A stretch of 33,468 bases of DNA from UHGV virus genome UHGV-0120943; one strand, 5' to 3'. This stretch comes from a virus. A program made the translations under genes and the position numbers. Of this stretch, positions 212 to 5,850 are shown one piece after another; positions within the stretch are counted from its first letter, which is position 1, and each line of letters starts with the position of its first letter. The notes under the pieces were generated by a model that saw only the letters and a list, made by a program, of their open reading frames with translations, did not search any database and was not told where the DNA came from.

Positions 212-1396
212 ATGATCAGAACAATAGCAATACGTAATTTCAAATCGTTGGTTGATGTCTCGATCAACCTACAAAAATTTAATTGTTTTGTAGGCATGAA
301 CAGTGCGGGTAAAAGTAGCATATTGCAGGCTATCGACTTCATATCGCAACAAATGCATGGATACCTCTACCTCTGGTTAGAAGATCGTGGCTGGGAGTCG
401 AAGGATCTGTACTCTCGAACGAGCAATACTAAAGCGTTTTCTCAACCACTGTTCATAGAAGTTATTTATGATCTGGACGGAAAATGCCTCGTCTGGCAAG
501 GTCATTTCAATCGTAGCCTTATGAGAATGACCCGAGAAAGTATCCATATAGACGGAGAAATGTACCTTGAGGTTATTGATGGGAAGTACAGAACACATGG
601 AAGAAGCTATGACTCAATACCTTTTGAGTATAGTGGTTCAATTTTGGCAACATTAAAAGATAACGTCATTTCTTCTGATGTTATTCATTTTCGTGATGCG
701 CTGAAAAATATCCGCTCTCTCGAGTTACTGTCTCCTCATTTATTGCGAAAGCGCTCCCGTTCGGAAATTAAACCCTCCGGAGTCGGCATTGGTGGAGAAA
801 AACTTTCGGGATACATTGATACGTTAACTCACGATGATAAAAAGATACTTCAACAGATACTCATAAAATTCTACCCACAGATAGTTGGTCTGAGAACGTC
901 GACGTTGAAAGGTGGTTGGAAACGACTGATTATTCAGGAGCGCTTTGTCGATGCAAACGGTGATGAGGCTATTTGCGAGACCGAAGCCGGACAACTCAAT
1001 GACGGATTGTTGCGTATTTTGGCCGTAATTGCTCAGCTAGAGTCCAAAGACGGGTCATTGCTTCTCTTGGATGAGATCGAAAACGGGATTAATCCGCAAG
1101 TTATTGAGCTGCTGGTAGATACTTTGGTTAATGCAAAAACGCAAGTCATTGTGACAACGCATAGCCCAATGATCCTCAATTATCTTGAAGATGATGTTGC
1201 GCGTAAGGGCATCCAGTTTGTTTATAAATCGCCACAAGGGCAAACGCGTGTCCGACCTTTCTTTGAAATGCAGCGTATAAATGAAAAACTTCAGGTCATG
1301 GGGCCTGGTGAAGCATTCATTGATACCGACCTTCAACGGCTGGCGCATGAAAATATAGAGCTTGATGAGATGCGACAAGACCTTATTAAGGATTGA
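212..1396 (+). CDS. ABC/OLD-type ATPase (AAA_15/AAA_21-like), candidate PARIS AriA-like defense ATPase
   Basis: 394-aa ORF. N-terminal IRNFKSL plus Walker A GMNSAGKSS; Walker B/D-loop LLLLDEIENGINPQ; H-loop VIVTTHSPMILN. Stop overlaps the downstream start (TGATG). Confidence 0.8.
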   Translation: MIRTIAIRNFKSLVDVSINLQKFNCFVGMNSAGKSSILQAIDFISQQMHGYLYLWLEDRGWESKDLYSRTSNTKAFSQPLFIEVIYDLDGKCLVWQGHFNRSLMRMTRESIHIDGEMYLEVIDGKYRTHGRSYDSIPFEYSGSILATLKDNVISSDVIHFRDALKNIRSLELLSPHLLRKRSRSEIKPSGVGIGGEKLSGYIDTLTHDDKKILQQILIKFYPQIVGLRTSTLKGGWKRLIIQERFVDANGDEAICETEAGQLNDGLLRILAVIAQLESKDGSLLLLDEIENGINPQVIELLVDTLVNAKTQVIVTTHSPMILNYLEDDVARKGIQFVYKSPQGQTRVRPFFEMQRINEKLQVMGPGEAFIDTDLQRLAHENIELDEMRQDLIKD

Positions 1397-2154
1397 TGAT
1401 GATTGTTGTATTGAGTGGAGAGGGGCCGTCTGATCTCGGCAGTTGTGTAAACGGGCAGGGAGAATGTCTGATAAATGATTTCAACCATGGCCCGATGACA
1501 TATTTTATAGATAAAGAGCTGGAAACATTGCTTGGGTTCTCTCTTCTTGAAATAACGCCAGATCGTTACATTTTTGTCTCAAAATCTGAGCTGATCAGAC
1601 TGACTTCAGCGAAGCGACAAAACCGATCTAGTATGAGTCTGTTAGGGAAGAAAAGGCCTGAAAAAGAGACAGGTTACTTTTATCTCAATGCTTTAATACT
1701 GGGGAATAGAGCTGCTGAGCTTGCAATTGAGCATGAAGATCCCGCAGTGATCGCAGTACTTTTTAGGGACTCTGATGGCACACGTTCTGCGAATTTATCG
1801 CTATGGCAGGATAAAGTAAACTCGATACGTCATGGATTTGATAATTCAGCTATAGGCGAACGCGGTGTTGCCATGGTTCCTAAGCCTAAGTCTGAGAGTT
1901 GGATGCTATGTGTGCTGAGAGATGGTTATGAACACTGCGCAAGGCTGGAAGATTTATCCGGGAATGATAATGTCCCCGACTCAGCTAAAAGGCAGCTGGA
2001 AGAGGCTTTAGGAAGTAATGCTTCGACATCGGCACAGATTCATCACCTCAAGCAAAGTGGCATTGATACGGCAAGACTTGCTGCACAGATGCCGAGTTAT
2101 GACGCGTTCCAACTAAGTTTGGCTGCTGCATTTCGCTTGGCTGCACAGGTTTAG
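1396..2154 (+). CDS. TOPRIM-like (OLD-family/DUF4435-like) partner of the upstream ATPase, candidate AriB-like effector
   Basis: About 252 aa, translationally coupled to the ATPase. N-terminal IVVLSGEGPSD fits the OLD-family TOPRIM hhhxEGxxD motif; a later AVLFRDSDGT supplies a DxD-type acidic motif. Track start 1393 is TTG; ATG at 1396 or 1399 is more likely. Confidence 0.65.
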   Translation: MMIVVLSGEGPSDLGSCVNGQGECLINDFNHGPMTYFIDKELETLLGFSLLEITPDRYIFVSKSELIRLTSAKRQNRSSMSLLGKKRPEKETGYFYLNALILGNRAAELAIEHEDPAVIAVLFRDSDGTRSANLSLWQDKVNSIRHGFDNSAIGERGVAMVPKPKSESWMLCVLRDGYEHCARLEDLSGNDNVPDSAKRQLEEALGSNASTSAQIHHLKQSGIDTARLAAQMPSYDAFQLSLAAAFRLAAQV

Positions 2155-2212: not shown

Positions 2213-2539
2213 AGACCTCGATAATAAGCAACTCATAATCATTCGCCAGCCACACCGTATGCTCTCCTGCAAACGAACCATCTATTTTAAGAAAGTCTCT
2301 GGTACTCGAACTTCCGCTTATGGCACAGAGCGGACTGTCATATTAGGTTTGGCTCCACGCCATAGATATGTCAGTTCATATCTTATCTAATACACACAAT
2401 AACTTTCTCATTCTTAGAGAATTATTCTTTTAAGGGTAGGTGTTGACGTTAGAGCAAAAGAATGGTGATTTTTTTGATGTGTATTACGTTGGAACTAATG
2501 GGAATAACTATCTGTTTTCAACGCACAGCTAATTTATCA

Positions 2540-2559
2540 AGGCCCTTTGATCAGGGCCT
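2540..2559 (-). terminator. Hairpin downstream of the minus-strand peptidase/membrane-protein operon
   Basis: AGGCCCT-TTGATC-AGGGCCT, 7-bp stem, 26 bp past the stop at 2585; modest U-run on the minus-strand transcript. Confidence 0.35.
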
Positions 2560-2584
2560 CCGAAAGACTGTTGGACCGAGAGAG

Positions 2585-3190
2585 TTACTTGCGTTTAAAA
2601 AGGTATTTTGTCACGACCAGCACGAGGCCGAATACCTCTGTCAAAGTACCGCCCATGTACAACTGGAGCGTTAAGTCTTTAAATACAAGCCATCCAGCAC
2701 CAGTGGCAAAAAATACACCATTCATTATCAGAAGTTGGCAAGCAAGGATAATCAGGAACCATTTGCCATAGCGTTTTTTTAGATCGATTTCAGCTTCAAA
2801 ATCTTTGTTGTTGAGTTGTTTGCGCTCATGCTCGGTATCAAGTGAATCCACCTGCTTCACAGATGTGAACTCGGTCAAGATTTTGCTCTCAGTACGGGTG
2901 ACTTGTTGAGATGGTGTAGCAGTTGGAATTCTTTTGATTGACGCAGCTACAGCCATTTTGCGAGCTTCGGCAGCTCTTTTTCTGGCTATTCCGTGAATAC
3001 GGGCAGACGGTTTTTTTGGAGCGTGCGAAACCTTTGGCTGAGGTGAAGTTTCGTCGGGAGACTGAACCGGGGTTTCATCGTCCCCCGGCTCAACCTCTTC
3101 TGCTAACTGACGGTGTAGGTTGAGGGAATCCTTCAGTCGGCGTGCAACTTCCTGTTTGAAACGGCTGTTAAAATCGTCATCCGATGGCAT
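2585..3190 (-). CDS. Membrane-anchored protein with charged low-complexity N-terminal region and two C-terminal hydrophobic helices; candidate effector
   Basis: 201-aa ORF starting 9 bp after the ImmA-like stop. C-terminus WFLIILACQLLIMNGVFFATGAGWLVF ... EVFGLVLVVTKYLF is predicted transmembrane. Confidence 0.6.
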   Translation of the reverse strand: MPSDDDFNSRFKQEVARRLKDSLNLHRQLAEEVEPGDDETPVQSPDETSPQPKVSHAPKKPSARIHGIARKRAAEARKMAVAASIKRIPTATPSQQVTRTESKILTEFTSVKQVDSLDTEHERKQLNNKDFEAEIDLKKRYGKWFLIILACQLLIMNGVFFATGAGWLVFKDLTLQLYMGGTLTEVFGLVLVVTKYLFKRK

Positions 3191-3199
3191 TCTAAAGCG

Positions 3200-3688
3200 T
3201 TACCCCAACCTCAAGTTCTTTAAACGATAAGTCATCGCATCGTCAGATACGCCAAAATAATGCGCCATTATATAACTTGGTTGGCCGTCAGCGTGCAGTT
3301 TTCTGACCTCATCAACCGGCATCAGAAGTTCTGCTGCGAACTTGTTCGCAAAAATTTCATCAGGATGCGTTCCGGCGCTTGCGGTTTCGCCACGTAAATC
3401 AACGTACTCATATTCATCACTATGCGATGCTTGCCGGGCGATGTAATGCCCCAACTCATGCCCACATGAAAAACGTTGACGAACTTTGTTGTCATCACTG
3501 TTTAGAAAGATCGCTGGATCTTGATCTTTTTGTTTAATCAGTGCGCCAGAAACTTTCCCAGGAAGATCGGTAATAAAAACATCTAATCCCATGTCGTGAG
3601 CAATTTTCGCTGGATCAACAGGGAAACCACGCCCGCACCAGAACGTGTCCAGCACTCGCCGGGCGTGCTCTCTTGGGTTGGTAGCCAT
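3200..3688 (-). CDS. ImmA/IrrE-family zinc metallopeptidase (HEXXH)
   Basis: 162-aa ORF with HELGHY zinc-binding motif in the FSCGHELGHYIARQ context typical of ImmA/IrrE (COG2856/DUF955). GGAGGAG Shine-Dalgarno upstream of the ATG. Confidence 0.8.
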   Translation of the reverse strand: MATNPREHARRVLDTFWCGRGFPVDPAKIAHDMGLDVFITDLPGKVSGALIKQKDQDPAIFLNSDDNKVRQRFSCGHELGHYIARQASHSDEYEYVDLRGETASAGTHPDEIFANKFAAELLMPVDEVRKLHADGQPSYIMAHYFGVSDDAMTYRLKNLRLG

Positions 3689-4164
3689 AGCTCCTCCAGT
3701 TACTGCATTACGATTGTTGGTCGAAATATAGACAACATGTTCCGTACCACATTCCTGTAAAAGTGCAAATTCTGCACTTCTGGTACGATATTAACTGTTA
3801 GTAGTAAAGTCTTCCAGATAAATCACTTTAAAATCGTGTGAATTGCTTGCTTTTTACGCTGCATTGTGGATGGCTCAATGTTTCCAGTAAAAACATACAT
3901 GATAATCATGAGATTAGTGGTTTTTTAGCATGATCTTAAGCCTGGTGCAGAAAATATCCCTTTAACGTATACCGCATTTTATGTCACACGCCAGAAGCCA
4001 CACCCCAAGCGGCCTGATAAGAAAGCATCTACTGTTTGAAGGATTTTGAAGCTTTTTCCCGTGACAAGATCCAGTTAACTGTTAGAATTCTTCGAGCCGA
4101 ATCGGTGGTTTTAGCCCATTCGTTAAAAATAAAAAGCATAAATATCATAGAGTAAGTTCAAAAC

Positions 4165-4932
4165 ATGCAGGCTCAACCTAAGACTAAACACCAAGAATTG
4201 GTCGATAAGCTATCATTCTACATAGACACCAAAACGCCTATAGAAGCTTTTGTGGCAGCAGATATTCAGCATGAGATTGGTTCTTTACCACCAGAATCCC
4301 GTTCTTATGTTACTGCTTTGCTTAAGGTTGCACTTAAAGATCATGATGCCGCTGTTGAGTGGTTCAAAGACGCCATGATGACTTCTGGTGATAATTCGGC
4401 GATAGTTGCTGGTAACTATGTGGGCTACCTGAGCTGCTCTGGTCATAATCTTTTCCATAGAATGGAAGTGTTCCGCCTGGTTGACGTATTCTGTACGCAA
4501 CGGATCAGAAAAATGGCGCGGAATGCTGCTTATTGCATCGGTAACGATAGGCTTGTTAAAAAGTATACCGTTATGATGAAAGCCTTACTTGATGGCGAAG
4601 AGCGAGATAGTATTGAACGTGAGGGCGCACAAATGGCAGAAGCTATTGTAAAATTCAAAGAGGCCACAGAGCTAACCTCATCTGAAATCGAGCAATTATG
4701 TGATGCTGCTGAACAGATTGCTAACAACCACGGCGTAAATTGTATCGGCATCGAATACTTCCTCAGTGGCGGATATGACAATGCAATTATCCTTTTCGCT
4801 GAAACTGAAGATTCCGATACACTTACGACGATGAATCTTGAACTAGTTGATCTTCTTGCTCATGATACTTACATTGACCGGCCTTTTACTTCGTGGTTTA
4901 AAAGCGCTGAAATGAAAGGAGCTGAACTATGA
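4165..4932 (+). CDS. Hypothetical protein, first gene of an overlapping two-gene module
   Basis: 255-aa ORF in the low-GC island; stop overlaps the start of the next ORF (ATGA). No family recognised. Confidence 0.6.
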   Translation: MQAQPKTKHQELVDKLSFYIDTKTPIEAFVAADIQHEIGSLPPESRSYVTALLKVALKDHDAAVEWFKDAMMTSGDNSAIVAGNYVGYLSCSGHNLFHRMEVFRLVDVFCTQRIRKMARNAAYCIGNDRLVKKYTVMMKALLDGEERDSIEREGAQMAEAIVKFKEATELTSSEIEQLCDAAEQIANNHGVNCIGIEYFLSGGYDNAIILFAETEDSDTLTTMNLELVDLLAHDTYIDRPFTSWFKSAEMKGAEL

Positions 4933-5327
4933 GCGTAACTGGTCAGAACTTCATTGAGTTTGCAGATAAATGCATCGCATTTGGAGATGAAATAGGATTC
5001 AGAAACGCGGTGGGACGTTCATACTATGGCGTGTTTCATGAAATCTGCAGCAAGTTAGAGCACTGCTACGTACTGACATCTCATGAAGGTGTGCGTAAGT
5101 ATTTAATGAGTGAAGCTCAGTGTAAGAAAGAGCCTTACGATAAAACAGCCCTGAGAAAGATTGGTGTCCTTTTACATCATCTGCATGTTCAAAGGAAATG
5201 GGCTGATTACACACTTGAGCGTGACTTGACCAAGGCTGACGCCGAATCTGCGATGAAATCCGCAAAGGAAGCCATGAAGCAAATCAAGACAATGCATGAG
5301 ACGGTTTATCCGCCTTCCGCTGCATAA
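4929..5327 (+). CDS. Hypothetical protein with possible HEPN-like R-x6-H motif
   Basis: 132-aa ORF coupled to the upstream gene. R30-SYYGVF-H37 matches the Rx4-6H pattern of HEPN RNases, but its N-terminal position is atypical; tentative. Confidence 0.55.
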   Translation: MSVTGQNFIEFADKCIAFGDEIGFRNAVGRSYYGVFHEICSKLEHCYVLTSHEGVRKYLMSEAQCKKEPYDKTALRKIGVLLHHLHVQRKWADYTLERDLTKADAESAMKSAKEAMKQIKTMHETVYPPSAA

Positions 5328-5343
5328 GTAACATAGTCCTTAG

Positions 5344-5363
5344 CCCCACCCTGGTGGGGTTTT
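5344..5363 (+). terminator. Rho-independent terminator
   Basis: CCCCAC-CCTG-GTGGGG followed by TTTT, 17 bp after the stop at 5327. Confidence 0.6.
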
Positions 5364-5610
5364 ACGCCTGGCTGCTGAGGCAGGTGTGTTTAAACAAATC
5401 CCCGCGAGATGCAGTGGGTCAGTTCTTTTTCCCTTTTCGTCGAGCGCTTCTTTTACCCACTCTTCAAGTTTCATTTTGCGAGCTCTGGCGCTGTTGTTCC
5501 ATACTGCTTTTGAGAGCCGTTACAGGAACGCCTTTTTCTCTCCAGTCATTATCTTTCCCTGGAGTACTGATAAAGACGACTCCATCAACAAACATTTTAT
5601 GATGTGATGT

Positions 5611-5638
5611 ACAAAAAGAAAAATCCCGCTATGCGGGG
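5611..5638 (-). terminator. Rho-independent terminator for minus-strand transcription
   Basis: Hairpin CCCGC-TAT-GCGGG; on the minus strand it is followed by UUUUUCUUUUU. Confidence 0.45.
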
Positions 5639-5819
5639 TTAACCTAATTTTTTTTTCGCTTCTTACTTCTTATCCCACATTCCATGCATTCTTTCTATCT
5701 CAGCATCAGTTAAATCATCCAGCCCAACAATTTCAGAGCCGTGACGATAAACGAAAACGCACACACTCTCCAACGTTAGTCAAAAATAGTCACGCGCAGC
5801 GCAGCACCCGCGCTCACTC

Positions 5820-5850
5820 GATTATTTATAATACCTATTGATTATTTATA
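5820..5850 (+). promoter_or_regulatory. Two 11-bp direct repeats (GATTATTTATA) overlapping a consensus -10 (TATAAT); candidate operator/promoter
   Basis: Repeats at 5820-5830 and 5840-5850, 20 bp centre to centre; TATAAT at 5827-5832; no good -35. Confidence 0.35.

Follow-up and report, generated by a model that had tools for sequence, protein, structure and literature searches.

Two adjacent genes at positions 2585-3688 of a viral DNA stretch of 33,468 nucleotides (UHGV virus genome UHGV-0120943; the whole stretch is referred to here as the window) likely form a self-contained two-gene cassette of the RosmerTA type, that is, a toxin-antitoxin or abortive-infection module that a lambdoid prophage carries as a 'moron' in a hotspot of variable content. 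The function proposed for the two genes is that of their homologues in Gordonia phage Kita. Both proteins of the pair were compared with protein-family, defence-system and phage databases, their genomic neighbourhoods were examined in related loci, and the results were weighed against three other explanations.

The peptidase and membrane-protein genes

The features of the module, listed in the direction of transcription, are as follows.
3689..3928 (-): non-coding stretch upstream of the peptidase gene, which moves together with the module; its end at 3928 is the limit of the block shared among E. coli genomes
3200..3688 (-): RmrA-like antitoxin gene, 162 aa, a stand-alone M78 (ImmA/IrrE) zinc peptidase
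2585..3190 (-): RmrT(D5)-like membrane toxin gene, 201 aa, assigned from family alignment, AlphaFold2, hydropathy and homology to Kita RmrT (gp33)
3095-3181 (-), residues 4-32 of the 201-aa protein: N-terminal helix (AlphaFold2)
residues 33-118 of the same protein (-): disordered charged linker (AlphaFold2)
residues 119-164 (-): juxtamembrane helix and first membrane helix, the membrane part at roughly 2699-2764 (AlphaFold2, hydropathy)
2594-2674 (-), residues 173-199: second membrane helix, nearly invariant, with a conserved membrane-embedded Glu185
2400..2584 (-): downstream non-coding tail, with a boundary common to E. coli genomes

The sequence-only reading had identified the first gene as an ImmA/IrrE peptidase with a HEXXH motif, and profile searches agreed. 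The 162-aa protein matched Peptidase_M78 in Pfam (PF06114, E 7.7e-18, residues 32-157) and fell into phrog_87, 'metallo-protease' (E 3.9e-30). In PADLOC it matched capP (E 2.4e-25), covering positions 3-151 of that 242-position profile, as well as RmrA models with E-values down to 5.8e-12. The RmrA profiles (357-400 positions) represent HTH-peptidase fusions, and the peptidase matched their C-terminal half, that is, the peptidase part alone (for example positions 166-266 of 363). The sole solved structure that matched in a sequence search was CapP (PDB 7T5T). The HELGH motif lies at residues 77-81 (bases 3446-3460). H77, E78 and H81 were invariant, together with E111, in an alignment of 13 peptidases ranging from Actinobacteria phages to Proteobacteria (the first row of this alignment lacks Met1 and is therefore numbered one lower). 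E111 (bases 3356-3358) is the putative third zinc ligand. No HTH was found in the peptidase by Pfam, and a GAF-like C-terminal sensor domain was absent, the protein ending at residue 162, just past the M78 domain. A strong Shine-Dalgarno sequence, GGAGGA, precedes the gene.

The membrane-protein gene follows on the same strand. The spacing of 9 bp between the peptidase stop and the second start (TAA CGCTTTAGA ATG) and the coordinates of both minus-strand ORFs were as first read. Unlike the peptidase gene, this second gene has no obvious ribosome-binding site. Its 201-aa product belongs to phrog_5346 (PHROG 5346), a group of unknown function, and matched nothing in Pfam, NCBIfam or PADLOC, including the RmrT models of PADLOC 2023. 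An AlphaFold2 model built with 24 homologues, which is of low confidence (mean pLDDT 59), placed helices at residues 4-32, 119-164 and 173-199 and gave no confident structure for residues 33-118. Hydropathy revealed a clear first membrane helix at 142-166 and a less hydrophobic second one. A charged disordered stretch followed by two C-terminal membrane helices, as proposed from the sequence, is thus borne out, with the addition of an N-terminal helix that precedes the linker. Conservation among close relatives covers the N-terminal helix, the juxtamembrane segment and the membrane hairpin, with an almost invariant second membrane helix; the linker is highly variable in length. The Glu of the second membrane helix is conserved across phyla, which would fit a pore-lining role. 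Hydropathy and the flanking Lys/Arg clusters are consistent with an N-in, C-in topology of the hairpin.

The first reading had also found no HTH gene near the pair. A search for a hidden small HTH gene among ORFs of at least 30 aa between 2155 and 4165 yielded no Pfam match at E <= 1, and the genes flanking the pair in the window gave no HTH match in Pfam. The lack of an HTH partner is therefore confirmed, but it is less unusual than had been implied, since the toxin-antitoxin literature already contains pairs of a small membrane toxin and an ImmA-type peptidase without an HTH.

A mobile cassette in a prophage hotspot

To place the pair in its genomic context, we compared the window with E. 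coli prophages. The window is a lambdoid prophage in which DUF1367 and DUF1364 genes and an antiterminator Q homologue lie downstream of the pair. Past the Q homologue, its ORFs are collinear with genes annotated as holin, lysis, terminase and head-tail in near-identical E. coli prophages. In these prophages the pair sits between replication genes (RepO and a DnaB-type helicase) and the DUF1367/Q block, in a region whose gene content varies from strain to strain. The cassette lies on the strand opposite to the phage genes, in an accessory hotspot and not in the immunity region.

Of 5426 complete E. coli genomes, 448 contain the block at 2400-3928, which comprises both genes flanked by about 240 bp on the upstream side and about 185 bp on the downstream side; in most cases the identity is 95-99%. 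On its left the module is bordered either by a PDC-M25 pair, as in the window, or, in another context, by unrelated hypothetical genes; small neighbour genes in two E. coli contexts had no significant Pfam match. Recurrence of the same block beside differing neighbours indicates that the cassette moves as a unit. This recurrence, together with the 696 clusters of the toxin family described below, argues that the pair consists of real genes rather than chance ORFs.

The upstream region (3689-3928) presumably holds the module's own promoter and leader, although a consensus promoter scan called none on the minus strand there. The same region contains perfect, nested inverted repeats (CGTACCA..TGGTACG around AAGTGCA-N5-TGCACTT) between 3743 and 3787, which places them about 55-100 bp ahead of the start codon of the peptidase gene. 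These are identical in E. whittamii, and the region is unrelated in Buttiauxella and Leclercia. With identity confined to Escherichia, the palindrome was dropped as a conserved operator; it may serve as an operator in this lineage only or form an RNA hairpin. The tail beyond the toxin gene has a GC-rich hairpin at 2541-2558 (GGCCCT-GATCAA-AGGGCC), a candidate terminator with a weak T-run that was not called by a terminator scan. Several E. coli genomes have an IS1 insertion in this 3' non-coding tail, close behind the toxin gene, with both genes intact (for example E. coli S9, NZ_CP107122.1, locus L020, 1703-2400).

Other accessory genes adjoin the pair in the window. PDC-M25, a PADLOC candidate defence system consisting of an AAA_15/AAA_21 ATPase and a 253-aa partner, occupies 212-1396 (+) (A, E 3e-157) and 1393-2154 (+) (B, E 5e-96) and directly borders the RosmerTA-like pair, which makes the region a small defence island inside the prophage. 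On the other side, a two-gene unit with an ATGA overlap encodes proteins of 255 aa (4165-4932 (+), phrog_17809) and 132 aa (4929-5327 (+), phrog_5176). Neither protein matched Pfam, PADLOC or NCBIfam, and the two PDB matches were at chance level (E about 0.7). The DNA at 3929-5830 had no megablast match in any of the 5426 complete E. coli genomes, and the unit at 4165-5327 seems to be a rarely found cassette of this hotspot. The 132-aa protein contains the motif 'GRSYYGVFH ... RKWADY', which may resemble HEPN motifs.

Conservation of the pair and homology to the RosmerTA of phage Kita

Failure of the two genes to be conserved as a pair had been named beforehand as a possible refutation, and we examined the gene neighbourhoods of their homologues. 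The gene for the membrane-protein homologue was immediately preceded, on the same strand, by one for a short M78 peptidase in all of 18 related loci (taken from other genomes and from metagenomes), and likewise in Kita. The 18 loci comprise ten genome loci, obtained by a pattern scan with one genome per species, and eight sampled representatives of the family. All ten genome loci were paired (Escherichia, Buttiauxella, Leclercia, Thalassotalea, Gallibacterium, Microbulbifer, Desulfuromonas and MAGs). In all eight representatives, Firmicutes-like prophage contexts included, the upstream gene encoded a Peptidase_M78 protein of 160-190 aa. The loci extend from Proteobacteria to Firmicutes-like prophages, and the paired genes either overlap or lie at most about 30 nt apart. 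The pairs are found in prophage lysis or integrase regions or in small islets next to tRNA genes; two are beside tRNA genes (L006 and L010) and one has no phage-like ORFs among its neighbours (L007). Searching 1.84 billion representative sequences with a profile of the toxin (HMMER, E <= 1e-3) gave 696 clusters at 50% identity, most of which contain proteins of 100-150 aa with a short N-terminal region in which the C-terminal module alone is matched.

We next compared the two proteins with those of sequenced phages. By tblastn, the peptidase had one 100% identical match, in an E. coli phage record that is cut off at this point; Kita-like Gordonia phages came next (44% identity, E 5e-31). The identical match is in the 27-kb 'complete' record of Escherichia phage vB_EcoM-705R4 (ON470624.1; L019, 6097-6489), which ends inside the peptidase gene. 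With the toxin gene cut off by the record boundary, this record appears to be a partial prophage sequence. Kita gp32 (YP_009301393.1) and gp33 (YP_009301394.1) are RmrA_D25 and RmrT_D5, their accessions matching those in Ernits et al. 2023 (PMC10440598); gp33 (119 aa) follows gp32 with a 4-nt overlap. The window peptidase is 43% identical to gp32 (E 1e-41). A tblastn search of 50,697 phage records, Kita included, gave no match for the 201-aa protein, and its homology to gp33 was detected with pairwise and profile methods. BLASTP aligned the two over 57 residues spanning both membrane helices (E 5e-7) and hhalign over 77 columns (E 8.5e-5), the likeness being confined to a membrane module of roughly 60-80 residues, where composition inflates scores. 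Because membrane segments can give spurious similarity, a shuffle control was run: an HMM built from the proteobacterial C-terminal modules alone scored gp33 at 25.0 bits, compared to 7.7 bits for the best of 2000 gp33 shuffles. Metagenomic intermediates bridge the two toxins. The family members L021 and L026 matched gp33 at 4.8e-9 and 1.1e-9, and an actinobacterial MAG homologue (L012, 44 bits) has motifs common to both the proteobacterial and the Kita sides. PADLOC also treated both pairs alike, ranking capP above RmrA for the peptidases and matching nothing in the toxins. Since both proteins match the Kita pair in architecture and sequence, we conclude at the sequence level that the window pair is a member of the RmrA(D25)/RmrT(D5) subfamily of RosmerTA, previously unannotated, and not a new kind of system.

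What is known of the Kita pair comes from its expression in E. coli (Ernits et al. 2023, PMC10440598). The toxin causes fast shutdown of macromolecular synthesis and renders the membrane depolarised and permeable, the HTH-less peptidase is an antitoxin that partly neutralises it, and the pair protects against the BASEL phages Bas54 and Bas59, a very narrow spectrum. By its relationship to this system, the window pair is probably defensive. The toxin-antitoxin or abortive-infection reading made from the sequence alone is therefore supported by strict pairing, by the lack of a hidden HTH gene and by homology to Kita RmrA/RmrT. Its picture of a protease acting with a membrane effector holds as to the type of module; as to roles, homology makes the peptidase the neutraliser of the effector and not its activator.

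We considered whether the membrane protein might be non-toxic, mediating superinfection exclusion or modulating the timing of lysis, with the peptidase processing it or turning it over. A small inner-membrane protein that is prophage-borne and encoded on the lysogen-expressed strand would suit such a role, and the pair is next to lysis genes in several relatives. However, the protein is homologous to a demonstrated depolarising toxin, its peptidase partner is invariably present, as is typical of toxin-antitoxin logic, and a near-invariant second membrane helix with a buried Glu suggests the lining of a pore. This makes a non-toxic role very improbable.

Similarly, the peptidase could act as an ImmA-like anti-repressor that cleaves a repressor encoded elsewhere, for instance the main repressor of the prophage, and so controls induction, with the membrane protein as an accessory regulator that might tether and so sequester the peptidase. 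Cleavage of XRE-type repressors is known from the M78 peptidases of ICEBs1, Deinococcus and CBASS loci, the PDB match was to CapP, and the related peptidase of Pseudoalteromonas phage ACA1 (gp1) is labelled 'antirepressor', a label given by homology only that may be wrong. Yet an HTH gene is adjacent neither in the window nor in any of the 18 related loci, the partner is strictly a membrane protein, and the pair also occurs outside recognisable prophage regulatory regions, as in the tRNA-gene and phage-free neighbourhoods above. In addition, the Kita pair is autonomous in a heterologous host, E. coli, and the window cassette lies outside the immunity region. We regard the anti-repressor explanation as quite unlikely.

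Other phage homologues of the short HTH-less peptidase were also inspected. In all of these the peptidase gene is followed by one for a small protein with a hydrophilic N-terminus and one or two membrane helices, at the following positions.
L014 2489-3665: peptidase/membrane pair of P2-like phage NC_070905
L015 1917-2812: peptidase/membrane pair of Mycobacterium phage Che9c
L016 422-1449: peptidase/membrane pair of Burkholderia phage Carl1
L017 277-1520: peptidase/membrane pair of Pseudoalteromonas phage ACA1
L018 1456-2413: peptidase/membrane pair of a Helicobacter prophage

The membrane proteins gp42 of the P2-like phage and gp2 of ACA1 form a second family (E 4e-17), to which Carl1 gp2 is weakly related. 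None of the five was accepted as a D5 member. The D5-family HMM did not match the proteins of the P2-like phage, ACA1 or the Helicobacter prophage, Carl1 gp2 had a marginal pairwise match to Kita gp33 (E 0.035), and Che9c gp33 did not score above shuffled controls.

Proposed action and relation to other systems

In the mechanism that we favour, the downstream gene would encode a small inner-membrane toxin with a cytoplasmic N-terminus, whose C-terminal hairpin with its intramembrane Glu would oligomerise and leave the membrane depolarised and permeabilised. The upstream HTH-less M78 peptidase would be the antitoxin that keeps the toxin harmless in uninfected lysogens, and it would be translated first, from its strong ribosome-binding site. 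Certain phage infections would then relieve the neutralisation, and the membrane would collapse, with death or arrest of the cell before phage release. The layout of the genes, with the antitoxin first behind a strong ribosome-binding site and the toxin 9 bp later, fits toxin-antitoxin logic.

Neutralisation is probably proteolytic, by cleavage in the cytoplasmic N-terminal region of the toxin, since the catalytic site is invariant across phyla, which argues that catalysis and not binding alone is needed. The toxin's own exposed cytoplasmic N-terminal region is the simplest candidate substrate. Even for Kita, incomplete neutralisation and the failure of AlphaFold to predict the peptidase-toxin complex (pDockQ 0.05; PMC10440598) count against taking direct antitoxin action as settled. 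Our literature search on the RosmerTA neutralisation mechanism, on cleavage and on catalytic mutants found nothing. A more specific version, a 'protease antitoxin', can be put forward tentatively. Here the peptidase may dock on the Enterobacterales-specific N-terminal helix and continuously clip the disordered cytoplasmic tether, blocking pore assembly, and a phage factor or host shut-off would stop the clipping and arm the pore. We hold this version to be possible but less than even in its chances.

The same features would admit the opposite assignment, by analogy with bacterial gasdermins, in which the N-terminal helix and linker auto-inhibit the membrane protein and the peptidase is a sensor and activator that cleaves the linker on infection and frees a pore-forming hairpin. 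ImmA, IrrE and CapP, relatives of the peptidase, act as signal-activated site-specific proteases. The catalytic residues are invariant here, and a long disordered, protease-accessible linker separates the conserved N-terminal helix from the hairpin. However, the Kita toxin is toxic alone and uncleaved, and its peptidase lowers the toxicity. Most family members have only 100-150 aa, which leaves little room for an inhibitory domain. Deletion of the antitoxin in the original RosmerTA, moreover, was not obtained or was untransformable, possibly from toxicity (Millman et al. 2022). We therefore consider activation by the peptidase unlikely. The 201-aa protein also differs from bacterial gasdermin effectors in having no Pfam or PADLOC match and in its model, a simple helical hairpin.

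Neutralisation by the peptidase remains the preferred reading, and on this basis we compared the window pair with described systems. It shares with the Kita RosmerTA its gene order, its operon layout, a stand-alone HTH-less M78 peptidase of about 160-180 aa and carriage by a temperate phage; in both toxins the N-terminus is hydrophilic and the C-terminus forms a homologous module of two membrane helices with a conserved Glu. In contrast to the 119-aa Kita gp33, the window toxin has 201 aa, with a conserved N-terminal helix that is specific to Enterobacterales and a long linker whose length varies, both without counterpart in the Kita protein. The host phylum differs as well, and the window pair is known from sequence alone. 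Like the original RosmerTA (Millman et al. 2022) and PD-lambda-2 (Vassallo et al. 2022), the pair combines a protein with a zinc-peptidase domain and a toxin, an arrangement that in those systems is a toxin-antitoxin phage defence. Their antitoxins, at about 360-400 aa, have an N-terminal Xre-HTH that the window peptidase lacks, and their toxins are unrelated and soluble. In PD-lambda-2 the peptidase-containing component is itself toxic (Vassallo et al. 2022). An HTH in RmrA has been described as 'often' present, and the validated Kita RmrA is also without one; an HTH is thus not strictly defining for RmrA.

ImmA/ImmR of ICEBs1, IrrE/DdrO of Deinococcus and CapP/CapH of CBASS have the same M78 catalytic domain with an HExxH...E site. 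ImmA, IrrE and CapP cleave an adjacent XRE-family repressor, whereas the window pair has no repressor and its conserved partner is a membrane protein; IrrE and CapP in addition have extra C-terminal domains that the window peptidase lacks. PanA/PanT (Panacea) systems, such as B. choladocola PanT_D11, also comprise a small depolarising toxin with an unstructured N-terminus and one or more C-terminal membrane helices, neutralised by an adjacent cytoplasmic antitoxin, but the fold of that antitoxin is Panacea and not M78, and homology between the toxins was not detected. The E. coli toxin-antitoxin module of Rousset et al. (E101_02645/02644) has its toxin gene upstream of the partner and different accessions, and is not this pair.

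About 8% of complete E. coli genomes carry the cassette, whose genes have no annotation beyond 'hypothetical protein' for one and 'ImmA/IrrE family metallo-endopeptidase' for the other. The link to the Kita RosmerTA gives both genes a candidate function, membrane-depolarising abortive infection, and adds a candidate defence system to a prophage hotspot. If true, a protease antitoxin would amount to post-translational, proteolytic neutralisation of a toxin, for which we found no demonstration in any toxin-antitoxin system in the literature searched. It would also explain why, in temperate phages, the small membrane proteins that accompany HTH-less M78 peptidases belong to at least two unrelated families. 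The cassette would offer a tractable model, native to E. coli, for how a repressor-less ImmA-type peptidase neutralises a membrane toxin and which phage signal releases it.
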